Positions 9,329-64,000 of a stretch of DNA of 64,000 nt are shown one piece after another. Location: positions 2,592,001 to 2,656,000 of the forward strand of contig CM000151.3 in assembly GCA_000004695.1 (NCBI GenBank), read 5' to 3'. The stretch comes from Dictyostelium discoideum (Eukaryota). Both the position numbers and the translations under genes were made by a program. Numbering within the stretch: position 1 is the stretch's first letter; each line of letters opens with the position of its first letter. The notes under the pieces were generated by a model. It searched no databases. It saw nothing but the letters and a program-made list of their open reading frames with translations, and was not told the DNA's origin.

Positions 9329-11091
9329 ATAATAAAGAAAAGTTATTTTAAATAAATTATTGAAAGTTAAATTTTTTTAAAGGAATTTTTTTTAATTTTT
9401 TTTTTCTTCTTTAACTATTTATTTATTTTTATTTTATTTAATAAAAATATTCATTAATTTGTCTGTTTAATTTTAAAAAAATAAAAAATCGGTTTGTATA
9501 CAGGGTGTGTTTGAATACAAATATCAAAACTGGCAATTACTTGGATTTTCTTTTTTTATACAAAAACGGATTTTGTAAACGAAGATAATTATACAAAGGT
9601 TACCCTGAAATAATAAATTAATTTATATTTATTTGTTTTTATTTGATGATATATCTTGATACAGTGAAAATGACAGTAAATCTATTTAAAATTCAAAAGT
9701 GGTAAAGTTTGAGACTGTGTAGGTGTTAATTTAACTATTTTTGTTAATGTGAGTAGTGGGTTATTTTTTTTGTGTGTTTAAAAAATAATACTAATAATTT
9801 TTTTTTTTTTTTCTATATTTAAAAAAATAAAGGAAAATACAATAGTAATAAGTGTGGTGGTGGTGGATAAAAATTAAAAATAAAAAAAATAATAATAATA
9901 AAATTAAATCAATACACAAACACACACACAACTATGTTATTCTTTGACTCTTTTAGCTACAAAAAAAAAAAAAAAAAAAAAAAAACTACTTAAAAATATT
10001 TATAACTTAAATAATAAATCAGAAATATTAATAATTTTTTATTCCATTAACCGTTAAGTGGTTTTTTTGTATATGAATTTATTTATTTTTATATTTATTT
10101 TTCATTTTTATGATAAAAATATCAATCTCTACACATTTTTGTTTTAATTATTATTTTTTTTTTTGTGTTTGTATTTTTTTTTGTATTGCCAAGTAAAGTA
10201 GGGGGTTACTCCAAGTTTAAAAAATGTTACAAGTAAAAAAAAAAAAAAAAAAAAAAAGTTTCCACATGTGAATTTTCTTAGTGGAGTAAAACTACAACTT
10301 CTTTTTATAAAATCAAAAATATAAATAACTTTTCTAAAAAGAGCATCAGTTAAAATTATTAGTATTTTTTTTTTTTTTTTTTTTTTTAAAATCTACAACT
10401 TTTTTTTTACCTTTTTAAAGGGATTTTTTTTTTTTTTTTTTCCAATTATTTAAACAATAAGTTCAATCTTATAAATCAATCTAAGTATTTTTTTTAGAAA
10501 AAAAAAAAAAAAAATTTATATATATAAATAATAGTTATCTTTTAAAATAAATCAAAAAAAAAAAAAAAAAAAAAAATGTCTCTTTTTAGTAAGTATACAT
10601 TATATATTAATATATATCTTTCGAGTCAATTTCTAATTATTTTTTTTTTTTTTTTTTTTAATAGATAACTTAAAATCAATCAGTTCATTTTCCAACTCAA
10701 TCGATAAAATAAATACTACAAATAAAATGAATAATAATTATTCACCAAATACAAATAGTACTTTTATAGTAAGAGATAAATATGAATCAAAACAAGATTT
10801 TAATGACCGTGTCCTTTATGATAGTTTATATCCATATTATTAAAAATAATAATAAAAAAAAAAATAAAAATAAAAATAAAAAAAAATAAAAATAAAAAAG
10901 GATAAATTAAAATAAAGTATTTGTTTGATGTTTCATTTTTTTTTTTTTTTTTTTTTTGAAAAAAAAAGATATGTTAATTAAATGTTTAGTATAAAAATAA
11001 TTATTGATCGCACACTCAAAATAATAAATCGGAATTTTTTTTTTTTTTTTTTTTTTTTTACATTAAATGATTTAGAATTTAGCTAAATTAT

Positions 11092-11825
11092 TTATTCGTA
11101 TAAATTTGGGTTTGGTTTAACTTCAGTTAATAATTCTTCTGGTTTGAACCATAAAGCAATTTCTCTGTTGGCAGATTCAACTGAATCAGAACCGTGGATG
11201 ATGTTTCTACCAACATCAACACCGAAATCACCACTTTATTTTTGTTATTGTTATTTTTTTTATTTTTTTTAAAAAAAGGTATTACAAGTTAGTAAAATTG
11301 TGCACAACAATAATAATAATAATATAAATAAAATAAAAATAAATTGATAATTACCGAATTGAACCTGGGGCTGAGGCTAATGGGTTGGTAACACCGATCA
11401 TTAAACGGGCAGAGGCAACAACACCTTTACCTTCGAAGACCATAGCAACGACTGGACCAGAGGTAATGAATGAGACTAAACCACCGAAGAATGGTCTTTC
11501 TTTGTGTTCAGCATAGTGAGATTCAGCTAAGTCTTTGGTTGGAACTAATTGTTTTAAACCAACTAAAACGAAACCTTTCTTTTCGTATCTGGCGATGATT
11601 TCACCAACTAAACCACGAGCAACACCGTCTGGCTATGAATTAATAAAATAAAAATAAAAAAAAAAAAATAAAAATAAAAATAAAAATAAAAATAAAATTT
11701 TATTAGTAAATTAAAATAAATATGTGCTAAAAAAAAAAAAAATAAAATAAAATGTAAAAATAAAATAAAAAACTTACTTTAACAGCAAGGAAAGTTCTTT
11801 CTTTGTTTACTTTATTTGTGGACAT
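11092..11825 (-). CDS. ndkC: Nucleoside diphosphate kinase (cytosolic NDK), 3 exons, 155 aa
   Basis: Hand translation of minus-strand exons 11778..11825, 11355..11632, 11092..11233 gives [155 protein letters not shown]. From memory this matches the D. discoideum cytosolic NDP kinase, including the NDK active-site NIIHGSD. Introns GTAAG…TAG and GTAAT…AAG. Confidence 0.88.
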
Positions 11826-32830: not shown

Positions 32831-32881
<51 letters not shown>

Positions 32882-45483: not shown

Positions 45484-46383
45484 TTTTAAAAAGGAAGATC
45501 TTTAGGGTGGGGTAAAGCTCGCACAAAAAAAAAAAAAAAATAATAAAAATTTTTAAATTTTTTTTTTTTTTTTTTTTTTACTTTTTATTTATATTTTTAT
45601 TATTATTATAATTATTTGTTTTGGGGGGTTTGTTAATTTAATGTGTTTATAAAAATGGGTAGTTTTTTTTTTTTTTTTTTTGAAAAAAAAAAAAAAATTA
45701 AATTAATAAAAAATGGGAATTTTGTATTTTAATAAAGAATATAATTAAAAAAGACACCCTCGTTTTTTTTTTTTTTTTTTTTTTGTTTTTAATACTTATA
45801 ATTCAATTATTAAAAAATAAAAAAAAAAAAAAAATTTAAATAGTTAATTAAAAAAAAAAATAAAAAATAAAAAAAAATAAAAAAAAAAATAAAAAAAATA
45901 AAATAAAAAATAAAATAAAAAAAATAAATTAAAAAAAAGAAATTTCCTAAGTCCGCCTGGTGTTGTCCTATGAAATTATAAATGTTGTAAATTTCTGTAA
46001 TAGGAACTATTAATATTTTTATTTTTATTATTATTATTTTTTATCTCTCGATAACCCCTTCAATATTATTAATATCGGTATTATACATATAAAAAAAAAT
46101 AAACTTTACCAAAAATTTTTTTTTTTTTTTTTTTTTAATATATACAATTTAGTTTAGGTTAATATTTTAAATACTTCTCCTTTTTTCCCCCTTAAATGAA
46201 TTGAAAAAAATAAAAATAAAAAATAAAGAAAAAAAAAAAAAAAACAATAAAAAAAAAAAAAAAAAATAATAATATACTTGAAATGGGAATAATCTCTTCA
46301 ATAATAGTAATCACTACTAATAAAAGTTTATAAATATATTTATTGTTAATCTACTCTTTAAAAAACAAAATAAGAAAATAAAA

Positions 46384-46419
<36 letters not shown>

Positions 46420-46597
46420 AAAACCCATTAAAATTTTAAAAGATAATAATTATTGTATTATTTAATAATAATAATTTATTTTTTTATTTTTTTATTTTTT
46501 GTTTTTTTATTTTATTTTATTTTTGTTTTTTTGTATGCATTTGCGTATATATATATTTTATTTTATTTAAATTTTAATTTTTTAATTTTTTTTTTTT

Positions 46598-47784
<1,187 letters not shown>

Positions 47785-48074
47785 TTTTATTTTTCATTGA
47801 AATAATTAGGAATTGGGAATCGCGAAATCAATAAGAATTTAAAAATCTTTTTTTTTTTTTCCTTTTTTTTTTATTTTTTTTTTTATTTTAATTTTATTTT
47901 TTATTTTAATTTTTTTTTTTTGCATTTCATATTTTTTCATTTAAAAAAAAAAGTTGTTTTTTTTTATTTTTTTTTTATTTTTCATAAAAACTCACTTAAA
48001 AACACACATATTATTATTTAGTTAGTAATAGTTATAAAACAAATTGTATATTAATTTAAAATCAAATAAAAGAA

Positions 48075-48294
48075 ATGGACGTTCAAACTAAATGTAACAT
48101 ATCAAATTATAAAATTTATTAATTTTTTTTAAAAAAATTAATTTAAAATTGGCCACCAATACTGATATATTTTTTTTTATTTTTTTTATTTCCTTTCTTT
48201 TTAATTAGACGGAGCTGGTCAAAATAAAGTATTAGGTGGTGCCAATCAAAAAAAGATTGTTGAATCTGAAGAAGATATTGCTCGTATGTACATC

Positions 48295-48328
<34 letters not shown>

Positions 48329-48942
48329 GAAAAAAATTATAATAATTCATTCTAATATTTTTTTTATTTTTATTTTAATTTTTATATTACAGTCCCAGAA
48401 TTAAATCCATCAGTACCACAAGCAATTCAAAGAGCCAGAAATGCTTTGAAAATGACACAAAAAGAATTAGCATTTGTAAGTTTTTTTTTTTATTTTAATT
48501 TAATTTTATTTCAATTTCTAACTTTATCACCATTATATTATTACTATTTAAATAGAAAATTAATGAAAGACCAGGTGTAATCAATGAATATGAAAGTGGT
48601 TCTGCCATCCCAAGTCAAGCTGTTCTTTCAAAATTAGAGAAGGCTTTGAATGTTAAATTAGTATGTTGTTTTTTTTTTTTTTTTTATGTGTAAATTTTTT
48701 AATTGATTTTTTATGTTGATTTTATTTTATGTGGTATATTTTTTTTTTTTTTCTATCTTTTTCTTCTCAATCTCTCTTTTTTTTTTTTCCATTGTTCACC
48801 CCCTTAATCACCAAAAATCCCCACAAAATTTTTTTTTTTATTTTTTATTTTTTTTTTTCAAATTATTAGAATTAAATTATTAACATAATACTTTTATTTA
48901 AAAATTACAGAGAGGAAAAGAAATTGGCAAACCACTCAAATA
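48075..48942 (+). CDS. mbfA: Multiprotein bridging factor 1 (MBF1, HTH/XRE transcriptional coactivator), 5 exons, 104 aa
   Basis: Exons 48075..48093 (19-nt first exon ATGGACGTTCAAACTAAAT|GTAAC), 48209..48283, 48393..48475, 48556..48660, 48910..48942. Protein [104 protein letters not shown] carries the MBF1 hallmarks (KYGAGQNK; HTH …TQKELA..INE.P.VI.EYE.G.AIP; KLRGK). The 104-aa length matches what I recall for the D. discoideum MBF1. Confidence 0.75.
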
Positions 48943-49088
48943 AATAGCCAATGTTCAATTAAGAGCCCACTTTAATTATTGAAAGGATTAATCAAATATA
49001 GAAATATACAATGTACTCCCCTTGACCCCATTAACCACACTCCCCTGACCCCTTACCCCACACAAAAAAAAAAAAAAAAAAAAAAATG

Positions 49089-49123
<35 letters not shown>

Positions 49124-49933
49124 TAACCAATAAATCACTTGGTTAAAAGTGAATGTAAATTTATTATCTCACACAACATATTTTCTTTTTTTAGATTTGT
49201 GTGTATTTTTTTTTTTTTTTCAAAAAATTTTTGCGTTTGTTGAACAAAATTAATGTTCCTATCAATGGAATTATTTATTTTTTTTTTTTTTTCTATTTTT
49301 AAAACACTTTTTTTATTTTTTATTTTTTTTTTTTTTTTTATTAATTTTTTTTTCTTATGATATGTTTGAAAATGATAAAAATGCCCAATTCAAGATAGTG
49401 AATGATAATTGTAGAGATTGAGAAAAAAAAAAACACTTTTATTTAAATTTATTTTTTATTTTATTTTATTTTTTTTTTTTTTTTTTTAATTATTTATTTT
49501 TTTATTTTTTAATTTTTTTTTTTTTTTTATTAATTTTTAATATTCATTTAATTTTTTTTTTTTTTCTAATATTAATATTATTTTTTGAATTAGGATTTGA
49601 TAGTAAGAAAGGTAAATTCATTTAAAATCCCTAATTCTAAATAAATATTATTTTTTTTTTTTTTCTATCATTACCTTTTTAGTATAATTTTCTTTTTTTT
49701 ATTTTAATTTTTTTTTTTTTAGAATTTAATTTCTTTTTTATTTAAATTTATTTTTTTAATTTTTAAAAGTTTTCTTTTCTTTTTTTTTATTTTTTTTTTT
49801 TTTTTATTTTAAAAATAATTACTAATATTAAAAATAAAAATAAAGATAAATTAAATTAAATAAATAAATAGATTAAATTAAATTAATAAATTATAAATAA
49901 AGAAAACCAAAAAAACAAAAAAAAAAAAAAAAA

Positions 49934-50410
49934 ATGGAATCAAAACAAATGGAAATTCCAAAAGAAGACCCATGGGGATTATGGAAAGCTGAATGGAAAA
50001 CTTGGTGGGGTGATGTTTTAGGAAATGACATGTTAAAGAAACAAGGTTTGGAAGAAAGAACTAAACTTAGAGGTCACCTTAAAGGTACTCCATTGAACAA
50101 ATCACCAAGTTTCAAAGACGAAAATATAGCCGCTTCAATTAATATTGGTGTTCATGGTAGTAAATTTGAATCAAATGCAACAAATACATCCCAGTCCACT
50201 TTCTTCCCAGAATGGAAAGCTCCTTCATTTGAACGTAATTCTGCTGATGATTTACTTTTGTATGTAGATTATTTTAAATTTTTTTTTTTTTTTTTTCAAA
50301 ATTATTATTATTATTATTTACTAATAGTTATTATTATTATTTTTATTACTAATAAATTCAGGAAAAAAGAGAGAGAAAGAAAAGAAGCAATAGGTTCAGG
50401 TAGCCTTTAA
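49934..50410 (+). CDS. Hypothetical small Trp-rich protein (~124 aa), 2 exons
   Basis: ORF MESKQMEIPKEDPWGLWKAEWKTWWGDVLGN…SADDLLL, then donor TT|GTATGT at 50260, ~100-nt AT intron, acceptor ttcag| at 50361, and exon 2 (L)KKERERKEAIGSGSL*. The tool ORF reads through the intron. Confidence 0.45.
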   Translation: MESKQMEIPKEDPWGLWKAEWKTWWGDVLGNDMLKKQGLEERTKLRGHLKGTPLNKSPSFKDENIAASINIGVHGSKFESNATNTSQSTFFPEWKAPSFERNSADDLLLYVDYFKFFFFFFQNYYYYYLLIVIIIIFITNKFRKKERERKEAIGSGSL

Positions 50411-50762
50411 AAAAAAAAAAAAAAAAAAAACAGAACTACCATTAAAGTTAATTTAAATGTATATAAAAAAAAAAAAAATTTTAAAAAAAAAACTGTAAAT
50501 AAAAAAAAAAAAAAAAAAACAAAAAAAAACATAAACTTAACCTAAAAACAAACAAAAATAAAAATATTTTCATATATATACACACACCAAATCTATTTTA
50601 AAATTTTAATTCTTTTTTTAGAAAAACCATATTTTTGATAACCACTGTTATTCAATTTTAAAAATTGTAAATTGAATAATCAATTTTAAAAAGTAATTTA
50701 TTGTTTTCGTATGTTTTATTTATTTATTTATTTATTTATTTATTTCTGTATATATATTTTAT

Positions 50763-50899
50763 TTAATTTTTAGGTTGATCCAATGGAATATAAGATTTTG
50801 GGTGAAGATTTGATACAGTATTTTTACTATGATCTACTAATACTTTGAAACTAAATGGTTCTGAAACTGCTAATTCTGATAAAATCTAAATTATTTTAA

Positions 50900-50939
<40 letters not shown>

Positions 50940-51257
50940 TATAATATTAGTATTAATATTAATTTTCTGTTTGTGAAAAAAAAAAAAACCACCAATTGAA
51001 AATAATAGTACCTTTCTATTAATTTCAACACCACTAGCAATTAAACCTCTTTGAAAATCACTATAGGTCATTTCATGTTGACGAGCACCTGCATTTATAC
51101 GTTCAATCCACATTTTACGGAAATCTCTTTTCTTTAATTTACGTGAAACATAATTATATTCTAAACCTTTTTCAACTCTTTCTCTTGCTAAACTTTTACA
51201 ATTCTTTGATCTACCAAAAAAACCTTTTGCTAATTTAAAAACTTTATCAATATTCAT
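50763..51257 (-). CDS. Mitochondrial ribosomal protein bL20 (bacterial L20 family), 2 exons, ~122 aa
   Basis: MNIDKVFKLAKGFFGRSKNCKSLARERVEKGLEYNYVSRKLKKRDFRKMWIERINAGARQHEMTYSDFQRGLIASGVEINRK aligns with bacterial L20 (…LAKGYRGRRKN…[23 protein letters not shown]…). Exon 1 51012..51257 (donor AAG|GTAC), exon 2 50763..50885 (ILSELAVSEPFSFKVLVDHSKN…*). Confidence 0.7.
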
Positions 51258-51307
51258 TTTTCTGGTTGCACAAAAATGAAATTTATTATTATCACTCCAA
51301 TAAAACG

Positions 51308-51338
<31 letters not shown>

Positions 51339-51892
51339 AAAAAAAAAAAAAAAAAAAAAAAAAATTGGAAAAAAAAAAAAAATTTAAAAAATAAAAAAAC
51401 AAATCATTTTTTTTATTTTTTTGGCACAGAGCCAATAATATAAACTAAACAATTCCAAACTAATTTTTAACTAATTCTTAAAATAAAAAAAAAAATAAAA
51501 AAAAAAAATAAAATAAAATCTGAAATAAAATAATTTTGAATACCAAATAAATCAAAAAAAAAAAAAAATAAAATAAAATCAGAAAAAAATAATCCAATTG
51601 AATCAAAAAAAAAAAAAAAAAAAAATAAAATAAAATAAAATAAAATGAAATAAAATAAAATAAATTTGAATACCAAAAAAAAAAAAATAAAATGTCACAA
51701 AAACAAAAATTTAATAAAAAAAAAAATCAAAATGGGTTTTTCTTTTTTTTTTTTTCATAATTAAATTTTATTTTTTTTTAATTTTTTTTTTTTTTTTTTG
51801 TTTTAAATTTAATTTGTTAAAAAAAAAAAACAAATTAAACATACAAAAAAATTAAACGTACAAAAATAATTTATCAAAATTTTTAAATAAAG

Positions 51893-52512
51893 ATGCATAT
51901 GAATAATTTAATACCTGTTTCAAATTCATTTGATAGTATGAGAGCTTTATTTTTTATTAATATATATTTTATAATTTATAAATAATAATTTTAATAAATT
52001 AAAATTTTTTTTATTTTTTTATTTTTTTTACTATTTTTTTTTAATAATTTTAGGTAATGGACAAACATATTATACAATTGGTAATTATGTTGATATTTAT
52101 GAAATTACATCAATAGCATTTGGACCAAATACAATTGATATTAAAACATTTTCAATACCTTCAAATATTAAAAATGTCATTTTATTGGATGGTTTCAATC
52201 AAGAGATACCTCAAAACTATTTTCCAAACACTGTCACAACCATTATCATTCATAATATAAGTAAACCATTATCAATTGGATCATTATCAAATATTAAGAA
52301 TGTTTATTTAAAAGATGGTTTTAACCACCCACTTGAATCTGGTATCATTCCAACAAGTATTCAAAAATTATATTTATCCCCAAATTTTAATCAAAAATTA
52401 TTTTCATCTTCATCAATACCTAATTCAATTGTGCTTGAAATCTTTTATAGTGATCCTTTTGATTATACAATTTTTACTAATTTAAATATTAATAATATTA
52501 AATTATTAAAAC

Positions 52513-52517
<5 letters not shown>
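51893..52517 (+). CDS. FNIP-repeat protein (Dictyostelium-type FNIP repeats), 2 exons, ~168 aa
   Basis: Exon 1 51893..51935 (MHMNNLIPVSNSFD, donor A|GTATGA), exon 2 52054..52517. Repeated units …FGPNTIDIKTFSIPSNIKNVILLDGFNQEIPQNYFPNTVTTIII… / …LKDGFNHPLESGIIPTSIQKLYLSPNFNQKL… characteristic of FNIP repeats. Confidence 0.6.

Positions 52518-52606
<89 letters not shown>
52512..52606. repeat. (AAT)n microsatellite (~30 units, one AGT interruption) immediately 3' of the FNIP gene stop
   Basis: Direct reading. Confidence 0.9.
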
Positions 52607-53812
52607 TTAAATTATTTAAAACTAAATAAATAACATAAATAAATAAAAAATAAATAAAAAAATAAATAAAGATGTATTTTTAAAAAAAAAACAATAATAA
52701 AAACAAAATAATTATTTTAGTATATATCACATTATTTGATAAAAATAATAAAAAAATAAAAAAAATAATAAAAAAAATAAAAAAAAAAAAAAATAAAAAA
52801 AATAAAAAAAATAAATATTATTAAAATAAAAATTTAAAAACGATTGGTTTCTCGTTCTTATGAATAATTTACTTCTTTCAAAAAAAAAAAAAAAAAAATT
52901 AATTAAATTAAATTATATAGGTTACAATTTTTTAAAAGGAAGAAACCACCAATTTTTTTTTTTTATTTTGTTTTTTTTTTTTTTTTTTATTAAACAAAAA
53001 ATTAATTCAAAAAAAAAAAATTAAAAAAAAGAAAAAAAAAGAGATAAATATTTTTCAACTGTTATCTATTAATTTTTATTTAAATTTAACACCCATTTAG
53101 CTCTATAGGTAATTAATATGCATTATTTTTTTAAATTTTTTTTTATTTTTTAATTTTTTTAATTTTTTAATTTTTTATTTTTTTTAATACCAGGTGGTTA
53201 ATTATGATTATTGTTAATATTGTTATGTGCGGTAATTTATTTATTTGGTAAATTTGGAATTTCTCATATTTAAACAAACATTCGATCTTAGGAACCCCAC
53301 ATTTACCATAATAATTATTTTTTAATACTGGTATAGTGTTTGTGGTTTAATTAACTTTCATTTCATAAACACACCAAATAAACCCACCCCCAAAAACGAA
53401 AATAATTAGATTTTTTAAAAAATTTCTCAATACACCCCAAATTCAAACATTGATTTTTATAACTTTCTACTCTTTTTATTTTTTTTATTTTTATTTTTTT
53501 TTTTTTAATTTTTTATTTTTATTTCATTTTTTTAACTATTCCAATAGTAATAAACACATATTTTTATTTTATTTTATTTTTATTTTTTTTATTATTATTA
53601 TATTTCACTTTAAAAAATATTCACTTTAAATTTTTCTAACAATAATTTACCTTTTTAAAATAATTTAGTAAAAAAAAATTAAAAAAAAAAATAAAAAACA
53701 CATTAAACAATTTTTTTTTTTTTAAGGATTTCCATATTTTTCACATTTAATTTTTTTTATTATTTATTGGAAATCCTTCCTCGTTATTAAAACCTTATTA
53801 AAAATTAAATTA

Positions 53813-53969
<157 letters not shown>

Positions 53970-54002
53970 TAAAATAAAATAAAATAATAAAAATAATATT
54001 AG

Positions 54003-54032
<30 letters not shown>

Positions 54033-54035
<3 letters not shown>

Positions 54036-55664
54036 TTAATTGAATGTAGATTTTGTTTAGAAGAAATTGAAGTTGAAGATCCAATTTATGATAAAAAAGA
54101 ATTTAATTTAAATGAAAATTCAATAAAATCAAAAGATATAGAAATAGAAGAATTAGAATTTAAAGAGAAATTAAATCGAAATAGTAATGGCGGATATGTA
54201 GAATTAACACCAATTTCACAATCAAAGAGACAACGTAAGAATATTGGTAATAGATTAGTTAGACCATGTGATTGTAAAGGTACTCAAAGACATGTACATG
54301 TTAAATGTCTTTGTGAATGGATTGGTAAATGCAATAAATGGTATTGTTCAATCTGTCATAGAGTTTATAATTTATCACCACATCATTTACATTATTGTGT
54401 AATGAAATTACAAAGAAAAGGAGTTTTAAAGAATTTACCACCAATCTATTCAAATACTGAATTCTCTCGTTCAAGTTATTTTGCATTATTAATTTTTATG
54501 GGTACACTAAGTATGTTAATGTTACCTTCAACTCTACCACAACAAAATTCAAAAATTTATTATGGTGTCGACACAATTTTAAATAACCATATAAATAATA
54601 ATAACAATAATAATGGTGTTGGTAGTGGTAGTGGTGGTAGTGGAACAGGTGGTGCAACAGTAAATTCATTATTATTTAATAATTTTAATGGTGGTATAAT
54701 ATCATTTTCAAATGAGGTTAGTGGAGGTGGCATGTTTATGAATTATAATCCACTAGTTGGTATTAATGGAGATACAACCACTGCTGGTTATAATCCAGGA
54801 TTTCTAAATTCGCCATCAGTTTCTTATTATAGTTTTTATCCATCTTCTTCTTCACCATCAATTTATATATCTTCAACGGGAGGTAGCTCTTCAGCAGCAC
54901 AACTTAACTTTCATCAACATTATAATGTAAATTCAATTCAAAGTAATAATAATAAAAATAAAAATAATAATAAAAATGATAATAATGATAATAACAATAT
55001 TAATATCAAAAATAAAGGAAAAGATTTGAATGAAAAATTATTTGAAAGTGATTTTGATCAATATTTTAATAGTGATTCAGCATCAATATTTTCATCATGT
55101 AAATTAAAAAATCAAGATGAAAAGTTTAGTTCTTTTGTTTGTCATTCATCACTTTATAGTCCAAATGTATTAAATTCAAATAATAATCCAAATAATCAAC
55201 AACAAGTTAATTTTCATTTTCCAACAATAGTTCGTAGTAGTTCAACAAGTGGTGGTGGTAGTAGTAACAATAATGATGAAAGTACAGATAGTATAACAAG
55301 TGAACAGTTAAAACAACAACACAAAGTTTTATTAAAGAATTATAATTTTATTCATAATATTGAAAATTATCAACCAACCACCCCAACAACAACTACTTCT
55401 ACAATTTTACAAAATGGTGAAAATCGTTGTATTGATGAGAACGAACAACTACAACAACAAGAAACTGAACAACAACAACAATCAAAAAAATATAAATCAA
55501 CATCAAAATCACCAATTTTAAATAACTTAGGATCAGAATACCATGATGATATTCATTTACAAAATATTTACATTGCACATCAAAAATATCATCGTGTAAC
55601 AATTGCTGATTCATTTAAAAATATATTCTGTACCTTGATCCCAGTTAAAAGGTTCTGTTATTAA
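54033..55664 (+). CDS. RING-CH (MARCH-type, C4HC3) zinc-finger protein with one TM segment and a long N/S/G-rich low-complexity C-terminal region, 543 aa
   Basis: CRFCLEE…(spacer)…RPCDCKGTQRHVHVKCLCEWIGKCNKWYCSICH fits the C-x2-C…C-x-C…H-x-H-x2-C…C-x2-C spacing of RING-CH. Hydrophobic stretch YFALLIFMGTLSMLMLP. Confidence 0.6.
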
Positions 55665-55847
55665 AAATTAAAAAATATTACAATTATTTAAAAAAAAAAA
55701 AAAAAATAAAAGAAATAATTAAAAACAAATAATTTATATTTATTTTATTAATTTTATTAATTTTATTATTGTTATTATTATTAATTTTATTATTATTATT
55801 GTTTATTATTTATTATTATTTATTATTTATTATTTATTATTTATTAT

Positions 55848-59990
<4,143 letters not shown>

Positions 59991-60477
59991 TTGAAATTTT
60001 TTTTTTTTTTTTTTTTAATTAAATTGTTTTTGAAAAAATTTTATAATTTTTTTTTTTTTTTATTTTTTTTTTTTTTTGTCTAAAATTTATTTTTTTTAAA
60101 AAATGAAAAAAATAAAAAAAAATGAAAAAAAATAAAAAAATATCTTTTTTTTTTTTTATTTTAAAAATATTATTTTTATTTTTGATAAAGCCTATAATTT
60201 TCATATGACTAAAATAAAATAAAAAAAAAAGATATTTTTTTGATGATTGAAAATTTTGTGGTTTTTATTTAAAACACTTTGTTTTTTGATTGTGCCGTGA
60301 AACTATTCGTTGCAATCTCATCAATCAACCTATATTTTATTTTCTTTTATTTAAAATTAATTTTTTTTTATTTTTTTATTTTTTACACTCAAAACGGTTT
60401 AACCATGTGCACAATTTTTTTTATTTTGTTTATTATTTTTAAAATTTGATTTTTTATTTTAATAATTTTTTTTTTTT

Positions 60478-60509
<32 letters not shown>

Positions 60510-60627
60510 AATCAATCATATAAAATAAAAATAGAAATTATCTTGTACAAAAATAATTAAAAAAAAAAAAAATAAAAAAAAAAAAAAAAAAAAATTGTTT
60601 AAAAAAAAAAAAAAATAATTTCTAAAA

Positions 60628-62045
60628 ATGGAATCAACAGAATATTTTACAGGTTCAGATTCATTTGATAAATTAACATATTCATTTATGGGTTTAAGAT
60701 TAATAGCATATACATATTTTTTTATTATATGTTTTTATCAAGCATTTTTAGAAATTCTTAAAATGATTAAAAAACAATCAAAAACTACAACAAGATTTTT
60801 TGTATTTTTTTTTCAATCTTTATTTTGTATTTTAAGAACAATTCAAACAGCATTTTTCTATGATAACCACCAATTAGGTAAATTTTTTATTTTTATTTTT
60901 ATTTTTTTATTTTAAAAATTCAATCAATAATAATTCTAAACAAATTATTTTTAGGTATTGGAACACCAAATTTTTTTTTCTTTTCATTAGGTACTGCAGC
61001 AATTTTCCTTGCTTGGGTTTTTATTCAACATTATTGTAAGTAGAATCATATAGTTTTTAATTTTTTTCTTTATGTTTTAATATAATTATTAATTTTTTAT
61101 TTTTATTTTTATTTTTTAAAAAAAGGGTTACTTATTATGTATAAATTTTTTATTTCAGAAGAAGTTAGACTAAATCGAGCAAAACCAATTAATTATTCAA
61201 CATTTATTTTTGCCCTTGTTATTATAATTTATCAATTTACAGTTTCAAGTATAACCTTGCGTAAAAATATTGAAACAGCAGAGTCTGTTGGATTTTTAAT
61301 TTTACTTTTAATTTATGCATCAATAGTTTCGGTAATTAATTTTATTATTATTATTATTATTTTAGTTATTATTATTATTTTTTTAATGGTATTAATTTTA
61401 ATTATTTAATATTTTTTTTTTAAAAAGTTTAATGGTTATTATTTATTAAGACATTTAAAAAAACATAAAAAGTCAACACCATTTAGTCATTTTGATATTA
61501 TGATTTTAAAAACCAAGATTTTATTATCAACAGTTATTTTTGTAGCAGTAACAATTATCATACAAGAACTTATTTTCAATATGTATTATACAGACACTTA
61601 TGAAACACCAAGACAATATTTAAAATTATTTATTGTTGGTGTAATAGAATTTTTTCAATTGGTAAATATTTTTAATATTTTAAAAAATAAAATTAATTAC
61701 ACCAATTATAAAAAAATATTATTAATTATTAATAAAATTATTTTTTTATATTATTATTATTAGTTAGTTGTAATGTTAGTATTATCAGATGGTAAATGGA
61801 AAGTTTATGTATTATTTAAATCAATTAAAACTCATAATGATAGTTCTAGTGAAATGGAAAATTCAAATAGTAATTCTAAAGGTAAAAAGAGTTCAACATT
61901 TGATTTAGGATATAGTGGTAATACAAATTCAAATTTTAATACTTTGGAAATTTCAATTGAAATTGAAAATTCAAATAAATCTTCAACAAGTTTTAGTAAT
62001 AGCAAAAGTGATCTAATTAATTCTTCTTTAAAAGATCCAAGTTAA
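60628..62045 (+). CDS. Seven-transmembrane-segment protein (GPCR-like/7TM family, not classified), 5 exons, ~350 aa
   Basis: Exons 60628..60877, 60955..61035, 61126..61331 (acceptor aaaaag| gives TGG…, avoiding the TAA that the nearer tttcag| acceptor would create), 61428..61661, 61764..62045, all GTAAAT/GTAAGT/GTAATT donors. Seven hydrophobic helices (LIAYTYFFIICFYQAFL; FFVFFFQSLFCIL; FSLGTAAIFLAWVFI; STFIFALVIIIYQF; VGFLILLLIYASIV; ILLSTVIFVAVTIIIQELIF; LFIVGVIEFFQLLVVMLVL) and a Ser/Asn-rich cytoplasmic tail. Confidence 0.55.
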
Positions 62046-62589
62046 AATATTAAAAATAAAAAAAAAAAATTATTTATTAAATTGTAAAAATTAATTTAGA
62101 AATATAATTGTTTTCTTTTTATTTTTTTAAAGTACAACAAAAATAAAAATGTATCAGTTCTCAAATTATTTGCTATTAAAATAAAAATTTCATCGAAAGC
62201 AAATAAAAAAATAAAATTTATAAAAAAAAAATTAAATAATTTCTAAAAAAAAAAGAAAAAATTGCTTTAACTTGTTAAAAATAATAACTTTGTAATAAAG
62301 TTACTCTATAAAATTAATAGATATTAAATATGCATATTACATTACTAATTATAGTTGACACACATTTAAATAATATAATAATAATAATAATAATACTGTC
62401 AACTCATTATAAATAATATAAATACTAAAGAATAATTTTATAAACAATATTGAATATTATAAATATAAACTAATATTAAATAAAGATAACAAAGTATTAT
62501 TCAATTATATAATTATTAATTATATATTTATAAATTTTTTTTTTGAATTGGATAACGCAATTATTATTTGCTTCTCCTTGAGATGCTAG

Positions 62590-62966
62590 ATCTCATTTTA
62601 TTTTATTTTTTTTTTTTTTTTTTACAGGGTCTCTAAAAGAGGGGTTAGTTTACTTTTTTTTTTTTTTTTTTTTGTTTCGAATTTTGAATTGTATTATTAC
62701 TTTTGATTAAAACATCTTTTTTGTTCCAACTTTTTTCTAAATCTTTTTTTATTTTATCGTCTGGTTCGTGATTGATGTTTATGACGTATTTGAATTGTTT
62801 TTTTTTTAATTGAGTTTTATCCACAATTTCGCTTATTTTTTGTAGGCATTTGTGTTGCTTAATATTTGTGGTGTTGTTTGTGATTTTCATTTTATTTTCT
62901 TTCTATTTTTTATATTTTTCTTTAAAAAGTTAAAAATCTGGAAATTTTCTGATTAACTTGGGTTCC

Positions 62967-63024
<58 letters not shown>

Positions 63025-64000
63025 TTATTTATAGAAAGTACTGAGTGAATTATTGTATTTTTTGAGATGTTTAGGAAGTTCTATTGCGTGAAGAGGTGAG
63101 TTCCATTGTCTGCTAAATTGTAATAGCTTTAGCGAGATTAGTGAGTCTAATTTATTTTGTTCTTCTGGCCGTTGCTTTGATTTGATTCTTAATGTTTTGT
63201 TTATAACCGCTTGTGTCCTGTCCCATGCAGCTCTTTGTGTTTTAATTAGTTCACGTATGACTTGTTGTCTGTGAATTATTATTTCTTTTTCATCGTGAAT
63301 GAGTTTATTTCTTTTGTGCCAGATTTTATCGAATATAATAGCTATTAAATTGGCTACTAGTGCAATTTGTAGATGGTTTAAAATCTTCACATTCCAGGTG
63401 TGAGTGGTGTGTCCACACTTAGTTAGGGTGTAGTTGAAGATTTCTTGTGTGTTTTTGATGTGGGCTTTGCAGTTGAAGAATATATGTTCTGAGGTCTCAT
63501 CTTCCCCACACTGTTGGCATGGCATGTTGTATATTTTTGGTAGTGCTTTCAGTGTGTATCTCCATAATAGATCTCTACCTTTCATGTTTATTATTTTTTT
63601 GATTTCTTTAAATGGAAGGTGTTTGCTATTAATTTTGGTCATTATTTCTTTTTGGCCAGGAGTTGGTATGAATTTGTTGTGTTCAGGAGATTGAGTTGTC
63701 ATCATATCTTCGTATATTTTTTTTAATTTTGGGAGGTGTTCGTAGTGTGTTTGTTTATTTTGTGGAGTTTTTAATTGGGTCCATGCTTGCTTGCATTGCC
63801 AGTGTAGTTGTAGTTGATTTTGTTTTGTTGTTGTTTTGTTGTTGTTGTTGTTTTTGAGTTCCTCTTCCCACAGTTTTATATATGAACTAGGAGTGTTACT
63901 TACTCTTTGGTGGAGGTATCTTTCGAATAACCATGCTTTCTGTGCTAGTTCTCTTGTCTTCAGGTTCCATAAGTTTAGGCCACCATTGATATAGTTGTTT
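62590..64000 (-). mobile_element. 3' portion of a non-LTR (LINE-like) retrotransposon with multiple oligo(A) tails (possibly a TRE-type element; family not determined). Continues beyond the window end.
   Basis: Minus-strand ORF open from 64000 to 63025, ending in a Cys/His knuckle (CQQCGEDETSEHIFFNCKAH) typical of LINE ORF2 C-termini. Followed (minus sense) by A57 (plus-strand T run 62960..63022), ~310 bp carrying a short ORF (62645..62890), then A22 (62655..62680) and A20 (62596..62617). Noticeably less AT-rich than flanking DNA. Confidence 0.65.
63025..64000 (-). CDS. Retrotransposon ORF2 C-terminal region (post-RT domain plus CCHC-like zinc knuckle), 5'-truncated by the window edge
   Basis: Continuous frame …NNYINGGLNLWNLKTRELAQKAWLFERYLHQRVSNTPSSYIKLWEEELK…QLHWQCKQAWTQLKTPQNKQTHYEHLPKLKKIYEDMMTTQSPEHNKFIPTPGQKEIM…CQQCGEDETSEHIFFNCKAHIKNTQEIFNY…*. 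Hand translation shows no stop between 63705 and 64000. Confidence 0.6.
   Translation of the reverse strand, partial: NNYINGGLNLWNLKTRELAQKAWLFERYLHQRVSNTPSSYIKLWEEELKNNNNNKTTTKQNQLQLHWQCKQAWTQLKTPQNKQTHYEHLPKLKKIYEDMMTTQSPEHNKFIPTPGQKEIMTKINSKHLPFKEIKKIINMKGRDLLWRYTLKALPKIYNMPCQQCGEDETSEHIFFNCKAHIKNTQEIFNYTLTKCGHTTHTWNVKILNHLQIALVANLIAIIFDKIWHKRNKLIHDEKEIIIHRQQVIRELIKTQRAAWDRTQAVINKTLRIKSKQRPEEQNKLDSLISLKLLQFSRQWNSPLHAIELPKHLKKYNNSLSTFYK

Follow-up and report, generated by a model that had tools for sequence, protein, structure and literature searches.

Stacked oligo(A) tracts at the edge of a Dictyostelium discoideum sequence window lie in the composite 3' end of what is almost certainly a TRE5-A.1-type retrotransposon

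The window analysed here, a stretch of 64,000 nucleotides of Dictyostelium discoideum DNA, ends on its right within a mobile element. TRE5-A is the most abundant tRNA-targeting element of D. discoideum, and the 1.47 kb from 62535 to 64000 are almost certainly the 3' end of a non-LTR retrotransposon of the TRE5-A.1 type (formerly DRE), lying on the minus strand, its tracts appearing as T runs on the plus strand. Read 5' to 3' on the minus strand, the order is an ORF2 C-terminus with a zinc knuckle, a stop codon, an oligo(A) tract, a B-module, a C-module and a short oligo(A) tail; the 5' part of the element and its 5' junction fall beyond base 64000, so that only these last 1.47 kb are inside the window. 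Convergent with the 3' end of the element is a host gene on the plus strand (60628-62045), which encodes 350 aa and is interrupted by four introns (60878-60954, 61036-61125, 61332-61427 and 61662-61763). Its product is a THH1/TOM1/TOM3-domain protein, with relatives in AX4 at DDB_G0273299 (97% identical) and DDB_G0273763 (89%).

The coding part of the element is represented by an open frame free of stops on the minus strand (63028..64000, frame 63999..63028), the C-terminal 324 codons of TRE5-A ORF2, which continues past the right window end at position 64000 and is closed by a TAA at 63025..63027, just where an earlier note on this DNA had placed the end of ORF2. Several D. discoideum proteins match the 324 residues at 100% identity, among them the AX4 protein DDB_G0279389 (980 aa), in which the fragment corresponds to residues 657-980 and Pfam finds RVT_1 at 330-571 (E 1.7e-33). 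Identity with an RVT_1-bearing protein bears out the earlier recognition of a non-LTR retrotransposon ORF2 tail, and the fragment is the C-terminal third of such an ORF2. A zinc-knuckle motif, CQQCGEDETSEHIFFNC, of the form CX2C...HX4C, lies at about 63519..63469 on the minus strand, and the fragment gives a weak Pfam match to zf-RVT, below cutoff. The element thus has the ORF2 with reverse transcriptase and zinc finger that characterizes TRE5-A, the reverse transcriptase domain being seen in the AX4 homologue and lying beyond the window here.

Downstream of the stop codon, four oligo(A) tracts follow one another on the minus strand. The first, an AT followed by A52 (62971..63022), separates ORF2 from the B-module; 297 nt further on comes the first oligo(dA) tract of the C-module, A20 (62654..62673), and after a spacer of 30 nt the second, A18 (62606..62623), which is followed by TAAAATAAAAT. 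The element body stops at 62545 (...GCGTTATCCAATTC) and passes into a true oligo(A) tail of A10 (62535..62544). This last tract is identified as the tail because homology to a second copy of the element (L001) ends there and homology to an empty site (L002) begins at 62534, both loci being described below. Three tracts had been recorded previously: the count of A20 holds, those of A57 and A22 become A52 and A18 on recounting, and the spacings of ~310 bp and 37 bp were approximately right. The element had been taken to end at the last of the three; it runs on to 62545, and the fourth tract had been missed.

Three further loci allow the arrangement to be compared between copies. L001, a 5'-truncated second copy on another chromosome (assembly GCA_054883475.1), matches window 64000..62535 collinearly (98.6% identity), includes all four A-tracts and ends in an oligo(A) tail; a 12-bp target-site duplication (TSD), TTAATAAATATA, is present at both of its ends, and its ORF2 homology begins at 9788, with the 5' end of a tRNA-Met(CAU) in head-to-head orientation 45 nt away. 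L003 has the structure of TRE5-A.2, AB-ORF1-BC, with the end of ORF2 joined almost directly behind ORF1, an A40 preceding its 5' B-module, and a deletion of ~70 bp over the B/C junction that leaves about 87-89 nt of the C-module. The published TRE5-A.2 has an ORF2 deletion and a 72-bp BC deletion, with 87 bp of C-module remaining (PMC3159450). L006 represents a TRE5-A-like lineage with ~80% ORF2 identity, in which the order is ORF2 stop, A63, B, GAAAC-A24, C and A9. The tract between ORF2 and the B-module, A52 in the window, measures 36 in L001, 37 in the 3' UTR of L003 and 63 in L006; the first C-module tract reaches A21 in L001 and A24 in L006, and TRE5-A.2 lacks it through the BC deletion; the second is A17 in L001, A15 in L003 and interrupted in the diverged L006; and tails in other copies have lengths of 17, 12 and 9. 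It is this recurrence at the same positions in independent copies, and not statistical rarity, that makes the tracts meaningful, the tracts alone being nothing unusual. Within L006 (8620-9140) the 3' stem-loop region is retained, a (TTAA)n run follows the first C-module tract, and the second tract is interrupted (ATAAAATATCACAAATAAAAT), from which it follows that the second homopolymer is not conserved across lineages.

The segment between A52 and A20 had been suspected of being a separate element fragment. It is the element's own 3' B-module, 292 nt on the minus strand (62679..62970), a copy of the 5' UTR and the beginning of ORF1 of the same element: with L003 6158-6498, a stretch that precedes and begins the 444-aa ORF1 of L003, the block shares 96.8% identity, and it is therefore the B-module. 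A 3' B-module is a TRE5-A trait, and the published length of 290 bp (described in PMC3159450 and PMC5006619) is close to the 292 nt counted here. It carries an 81-aa ORF (62645..62890, minus strand), the duplicated ORF1 start, which crosses A20 as KKKKKK. This ORF is a by-product of the duplication and no independent gene; its homologues are short 'hypothetical proteins' only, and searches for Pfam families returned none in the B-module ORF and none in the ORF1 of L003. Newer assemblies, like AX4 (DDB_G0282561, DDB_G0280833), list equivalents of the ORF as 'hypothetical proteins', and in L003 the equivalent is spliced into a 117-aa gene model. These annotated equivalents are likely to be annotation artefacts, and the short ORF of the 3' B-module should stay unannotated as a gene.

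The C-module occupies the remaining 134 nt of the element body (62545..62678, minus strand), its limits being set by the divergence of the 5' and 3' B-module copies on one side and the start of the tail on the other. It is published with a length of 134 or 137 bp and defines the 3' end of the element (PMC3159450). With its 134 nt and its A20 and A18, the window copy has the C-module of 134-137 bp with two 14-22 nt oligo(dA/dT) tracts that is typical of TRE5-A. Two CbfA footprints, each of 14-22 homopolymeric thymidines, have been described in the C-module (Lucas et al., 2009, PMC2661138), and on sequence A20 and A18 would correspond to these published in-vitro footprints. The module acts as an antisense promoter, a weak one, to which CbfA binds in vitro with no regulation in vivo, and it was probably gained by 3' transduction (Schmith et al., 2015, PMC4559204). 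According to the literature, retrotransposition needs the 3' part of the C-module RNA. In a minimum-free-energy fold, the last 54 nt of the module (62545..62598, minus strand) are predicted to form three RNA stems at -11.3 kcal/mol (z = -3.1), and none of 200 shuffled sequences folds as well. The positions mutated in published work, T15, C26, A35 and C38, counted from the 3' end (PMC3159450), have the stated base in the window in all four cases and are located in two of the three predicted stems. A 3'-terminal RNA with stems I-III, a further TRE5-A trait, is accordingly represented here by a predicted fold together with the reference bases, among copies that are nearly identical.

The published structure of TRE5-A.1 is AB-ORF1/ORF2-BC (Siol et al., 2011, PMC3159450), and TRE5-A.1 (DRE) is an autonomous, tRNA-gene-targeted element of 5647 nt. 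An ORF2 whose C-terminus is intact and a BC that is undeleted place the window copy with the A.1 type. Its resemblance to TRE5-A.1 extends from an ORF2 C-terminus identical to AX4 copies, through the oligo(A), the 290-bp B-module and the 134-nt C-module with its two tracts, to a 3' stem-loop region with the published bases and a variable tail, to which may be added the target position and orientation suggested by the empty allele; over the last 1.47 kb no difference was found. The non-autonomous TRE5-A.2, exemplified by L003, shares the same B- and C-modules and tail, but has lost most of ORF2, and its 72-bp deletion at the B/C junction removes the first C-module tract, whereas the window copy is undeleted. 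Assignment to the TRE5-A family is based on architecture, on published lengths and positions and on the named AX4 proteins. The analysis itself shows the modular layout and its retention in independent copies, the family to which the element belongs and the empty allele with its tRNA-Leu(UAA). The layout of the 3' end is that of a textbook TRE5-A.1, already known; the significance of its recognition outside annotation is small.

Insertions of TRE5-A lie about 47 bp upstream of tRNA genes, the 5' end of the element being turned towards the tRNA (PMC3159450); 59% of the TRE5-A copies in the reference genome are within 47 +/- 3 bp, and yet no tRNA had been recognized near the end of this element. 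That observation was right, and it can be extended to the whole 64-kb window, in which neither ARAGORN nor Rfam at gathering thresholds finds a tRNA gene; nor does Rfam find a tRNA in window 58-64 kb at E up to 10. The negative result is meaningful because ARAGORN does detect Dictyostelium tRNA genes, those of L001, L002 and L005 serving as positive controls. The B-box-like motif GGTTCRANYC has three matches in the window (11141, 11356 and 35683, minus strand) versus 0.47 expected, all three remote from the element; those at 11141 and 11356 were rejected as tRNA candidates, both lying inside coding exons of an NDP-kinase-like gene.

The target is instead visible in alleles that lack the element. 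L002, the orthologous locus in GCA_054883475.1, is 99.7% identical to window 62534..45809 and carries no element; the match breaks off precisely where the A10 tail ends, which makes L002 an empty site. The target DNA that flanks the element on its 3' side (TTTATAAATATAT..., 62519..62534, minus strand), where the 3' copy of a TSD is expected, is identical to L002 from 7457 onward. An intact tRNA-Leu(UAA), and not the degenerate tRNA that had been entertained, begins 32 nt past the junction in L002, in the orientation predicted for TRE5-A. The TSD of TRE5-A is 10-16 bp (PMC9012585), and by simple arithmetic from L002 these 32 nt plus a TSD of that size would put the 5' junction of the element 42-48 bp upstream of the tRNA. 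In a different strain (L005, GCA_054859355.1), the same host gene is likewise followed downstream by a tRNA-Leu(UAA), and the element is absent. The insertion is therefore polymorphic in D. discoideum, with empty sites at L002 7400-7460 and L005 11390-11662. An insertion of recent date is indicated by this polymorphism and by the ORF2 fragment, which is intact and does not differ from other copies; polymorphism among strains is as expected for an active TRE5-A population.

Taken together, these data allow the construction of a model for the missing tRNA. No tRNA is visible because the 5' end of TRE5-A faces the tRNA gene and this 5' end lies past base 64000; it can be inferred, on strong indirect evidence, that the tRNA-Leu(UAA) of the window copy lies beyond base 64000, past the 5' end of the element and no more than about 5.7 kb from 62545. 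The features of the 5' side of TRE5-A, an A-module promoter, ORF1 and an APE endonuclease domain, would likewise be situated past base 64000. This model would place, beyond the 5' end, a repeat of ...ATATATTTATAAA (plus strand), then ~32 nt (GCTAACAAGCTTTATTACAACTTACATACAAA), and then a plus-strand tRNA-Leu(UAA) beginning GCAAGGGTAGG. According to the literature, the ORF1 protein of TRE5-A makes contact with TFIIIB at tRNA genes, and the element is copied through target-primed reverse transcription. The seeming paradox of a tRNA-targeting element without a visible tRNA is thus explained by element orientation and the window edge.

The absence of a tRNA gene from the window could also be accounted for by an element of a different family, as the earlier note had considered, whether TRE5-B, TRE5-C, TRE3 or a LINE that does not target tRNA genes. 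TRE5-B and TRE5-C have related ORFs and also target positions upstream of tRNA genes, and a C-module is found in TRE5-C as well, 78% identical in its 3' part (PMC3159450). However, TRE5-B and TRE5-C are without a 3' B-module and TRE5-B is without a C-module (PMC3159450), whereas both modules are present here. TRE3 (A-D) sits ~100 bp downstream of tRNA genes, but at the empty allele and in L001 the tRNA turns its own 5' side towards the 5' end of the element, which lies upstream by 42-48 and 45 nt, respectively. Another family is thus a very improbable source of this sequence, and TRE5-A remains the identification. It is even harder to believe that the element ends at A52 and that A18 and A20 are background homopolymers of AT-rich intergenic DNA. 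The window (21.5% G+C) does contain such runs in quantity: A/T runs of 12 nt or more number 160, and in five places, that of the element included, three runs of one base, each 18 nt or longer, cluster within 420 bp, which leaves four other clusters. However, homology to other copies of the element extends 436 nt beyond A52, and homology to the empty allele starts only at 62534. Elsewhere in the window, T66 and T50 runs at 2390-2455 and 32832-32881 are comparable to or exceed the A52 of the element.

A series of successive or nested integrations at the locus, with each A-tract the tail of a separate insertion, was proposed earlier as well, and would account for several oligo(A) tracts stacked after the ORF2 stop and for the self-contained appearance of the block between them. 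However, the order of tracts and blocks is the same at unrelated loci (97-98.6% identity), where the 1.47-kb stretch as a whole is collinear at 98.6% with one of them, and it recurs in TRE5-A.2 and in the diverged lineage. The repeats that flank the internal tracts are driven by the T runs, and the search for TSDs at each A-tract, a suggestion of the earlier note, yielded nothing TSD-like among them. In addition, the empty allele shows one insertion, with one junction at 62534/62535. There is accordingly very little chance that separate events at this locus produced the stack. The composite 3' module, which had been offered as the other possibility, is what the data bear out, all of the tracts lying in one conserved TRE5-A 3' UTR; that the A-tracts form part of a single known 3' UTR module is also the finding that the earlier note had named as speaking against its own proposal.

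Nested insertion may still be relevant as the evolutionary origin of the modules, by ancient 3' transduction, as opposed to events at the locus. Tentatively, and with the balance somewhat against it, the internal A52 could be what remains of the poly(A) tail of an ancestral element that terminated after ORF2, read-through (3' transduction) or template switching having then captured (A)n plus the B-module and, after it, the C-module. The presence of an A-tract at the head of both B-module copies, with A40 at the 5' copy in L003, is in keeping with duplication of a unit to which the tract belongs. If such an origin were true, the stacked tracts would be a trace of how the TRE5-A 3' UTR was put together in evolution and not a history of the locus. 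It would resemble 3' transduction by LINEs, such as human L1, in that sequence past an apparent former poly(A) site travels as part of the element; unlike these locus-specific passengers, the TRE5-A modules are fixed in the family consensus, and the C-module is needed for mobility.

The surroundings of the target tRNA in the empty alleles offered some further observations. Beside the tRNA genes of L002, a 1365-aa ORF was considered as a possible TRE3 and rejected, since no retroelement domain was found in it and its DNA shows no similarity to the element. Between tRNA-Thr(AGU) and tRNA-Leu(UAA), the same locus contains an apparent decayed cytochrome P450 gene (L002 6300-7080), a stretch with no ORF of at least 100 aa in which a heme-binding-like motif can be seen by eye. 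At the corresponding place in L005 (12082-13640), an intact P450 gene of 460 aa is called.
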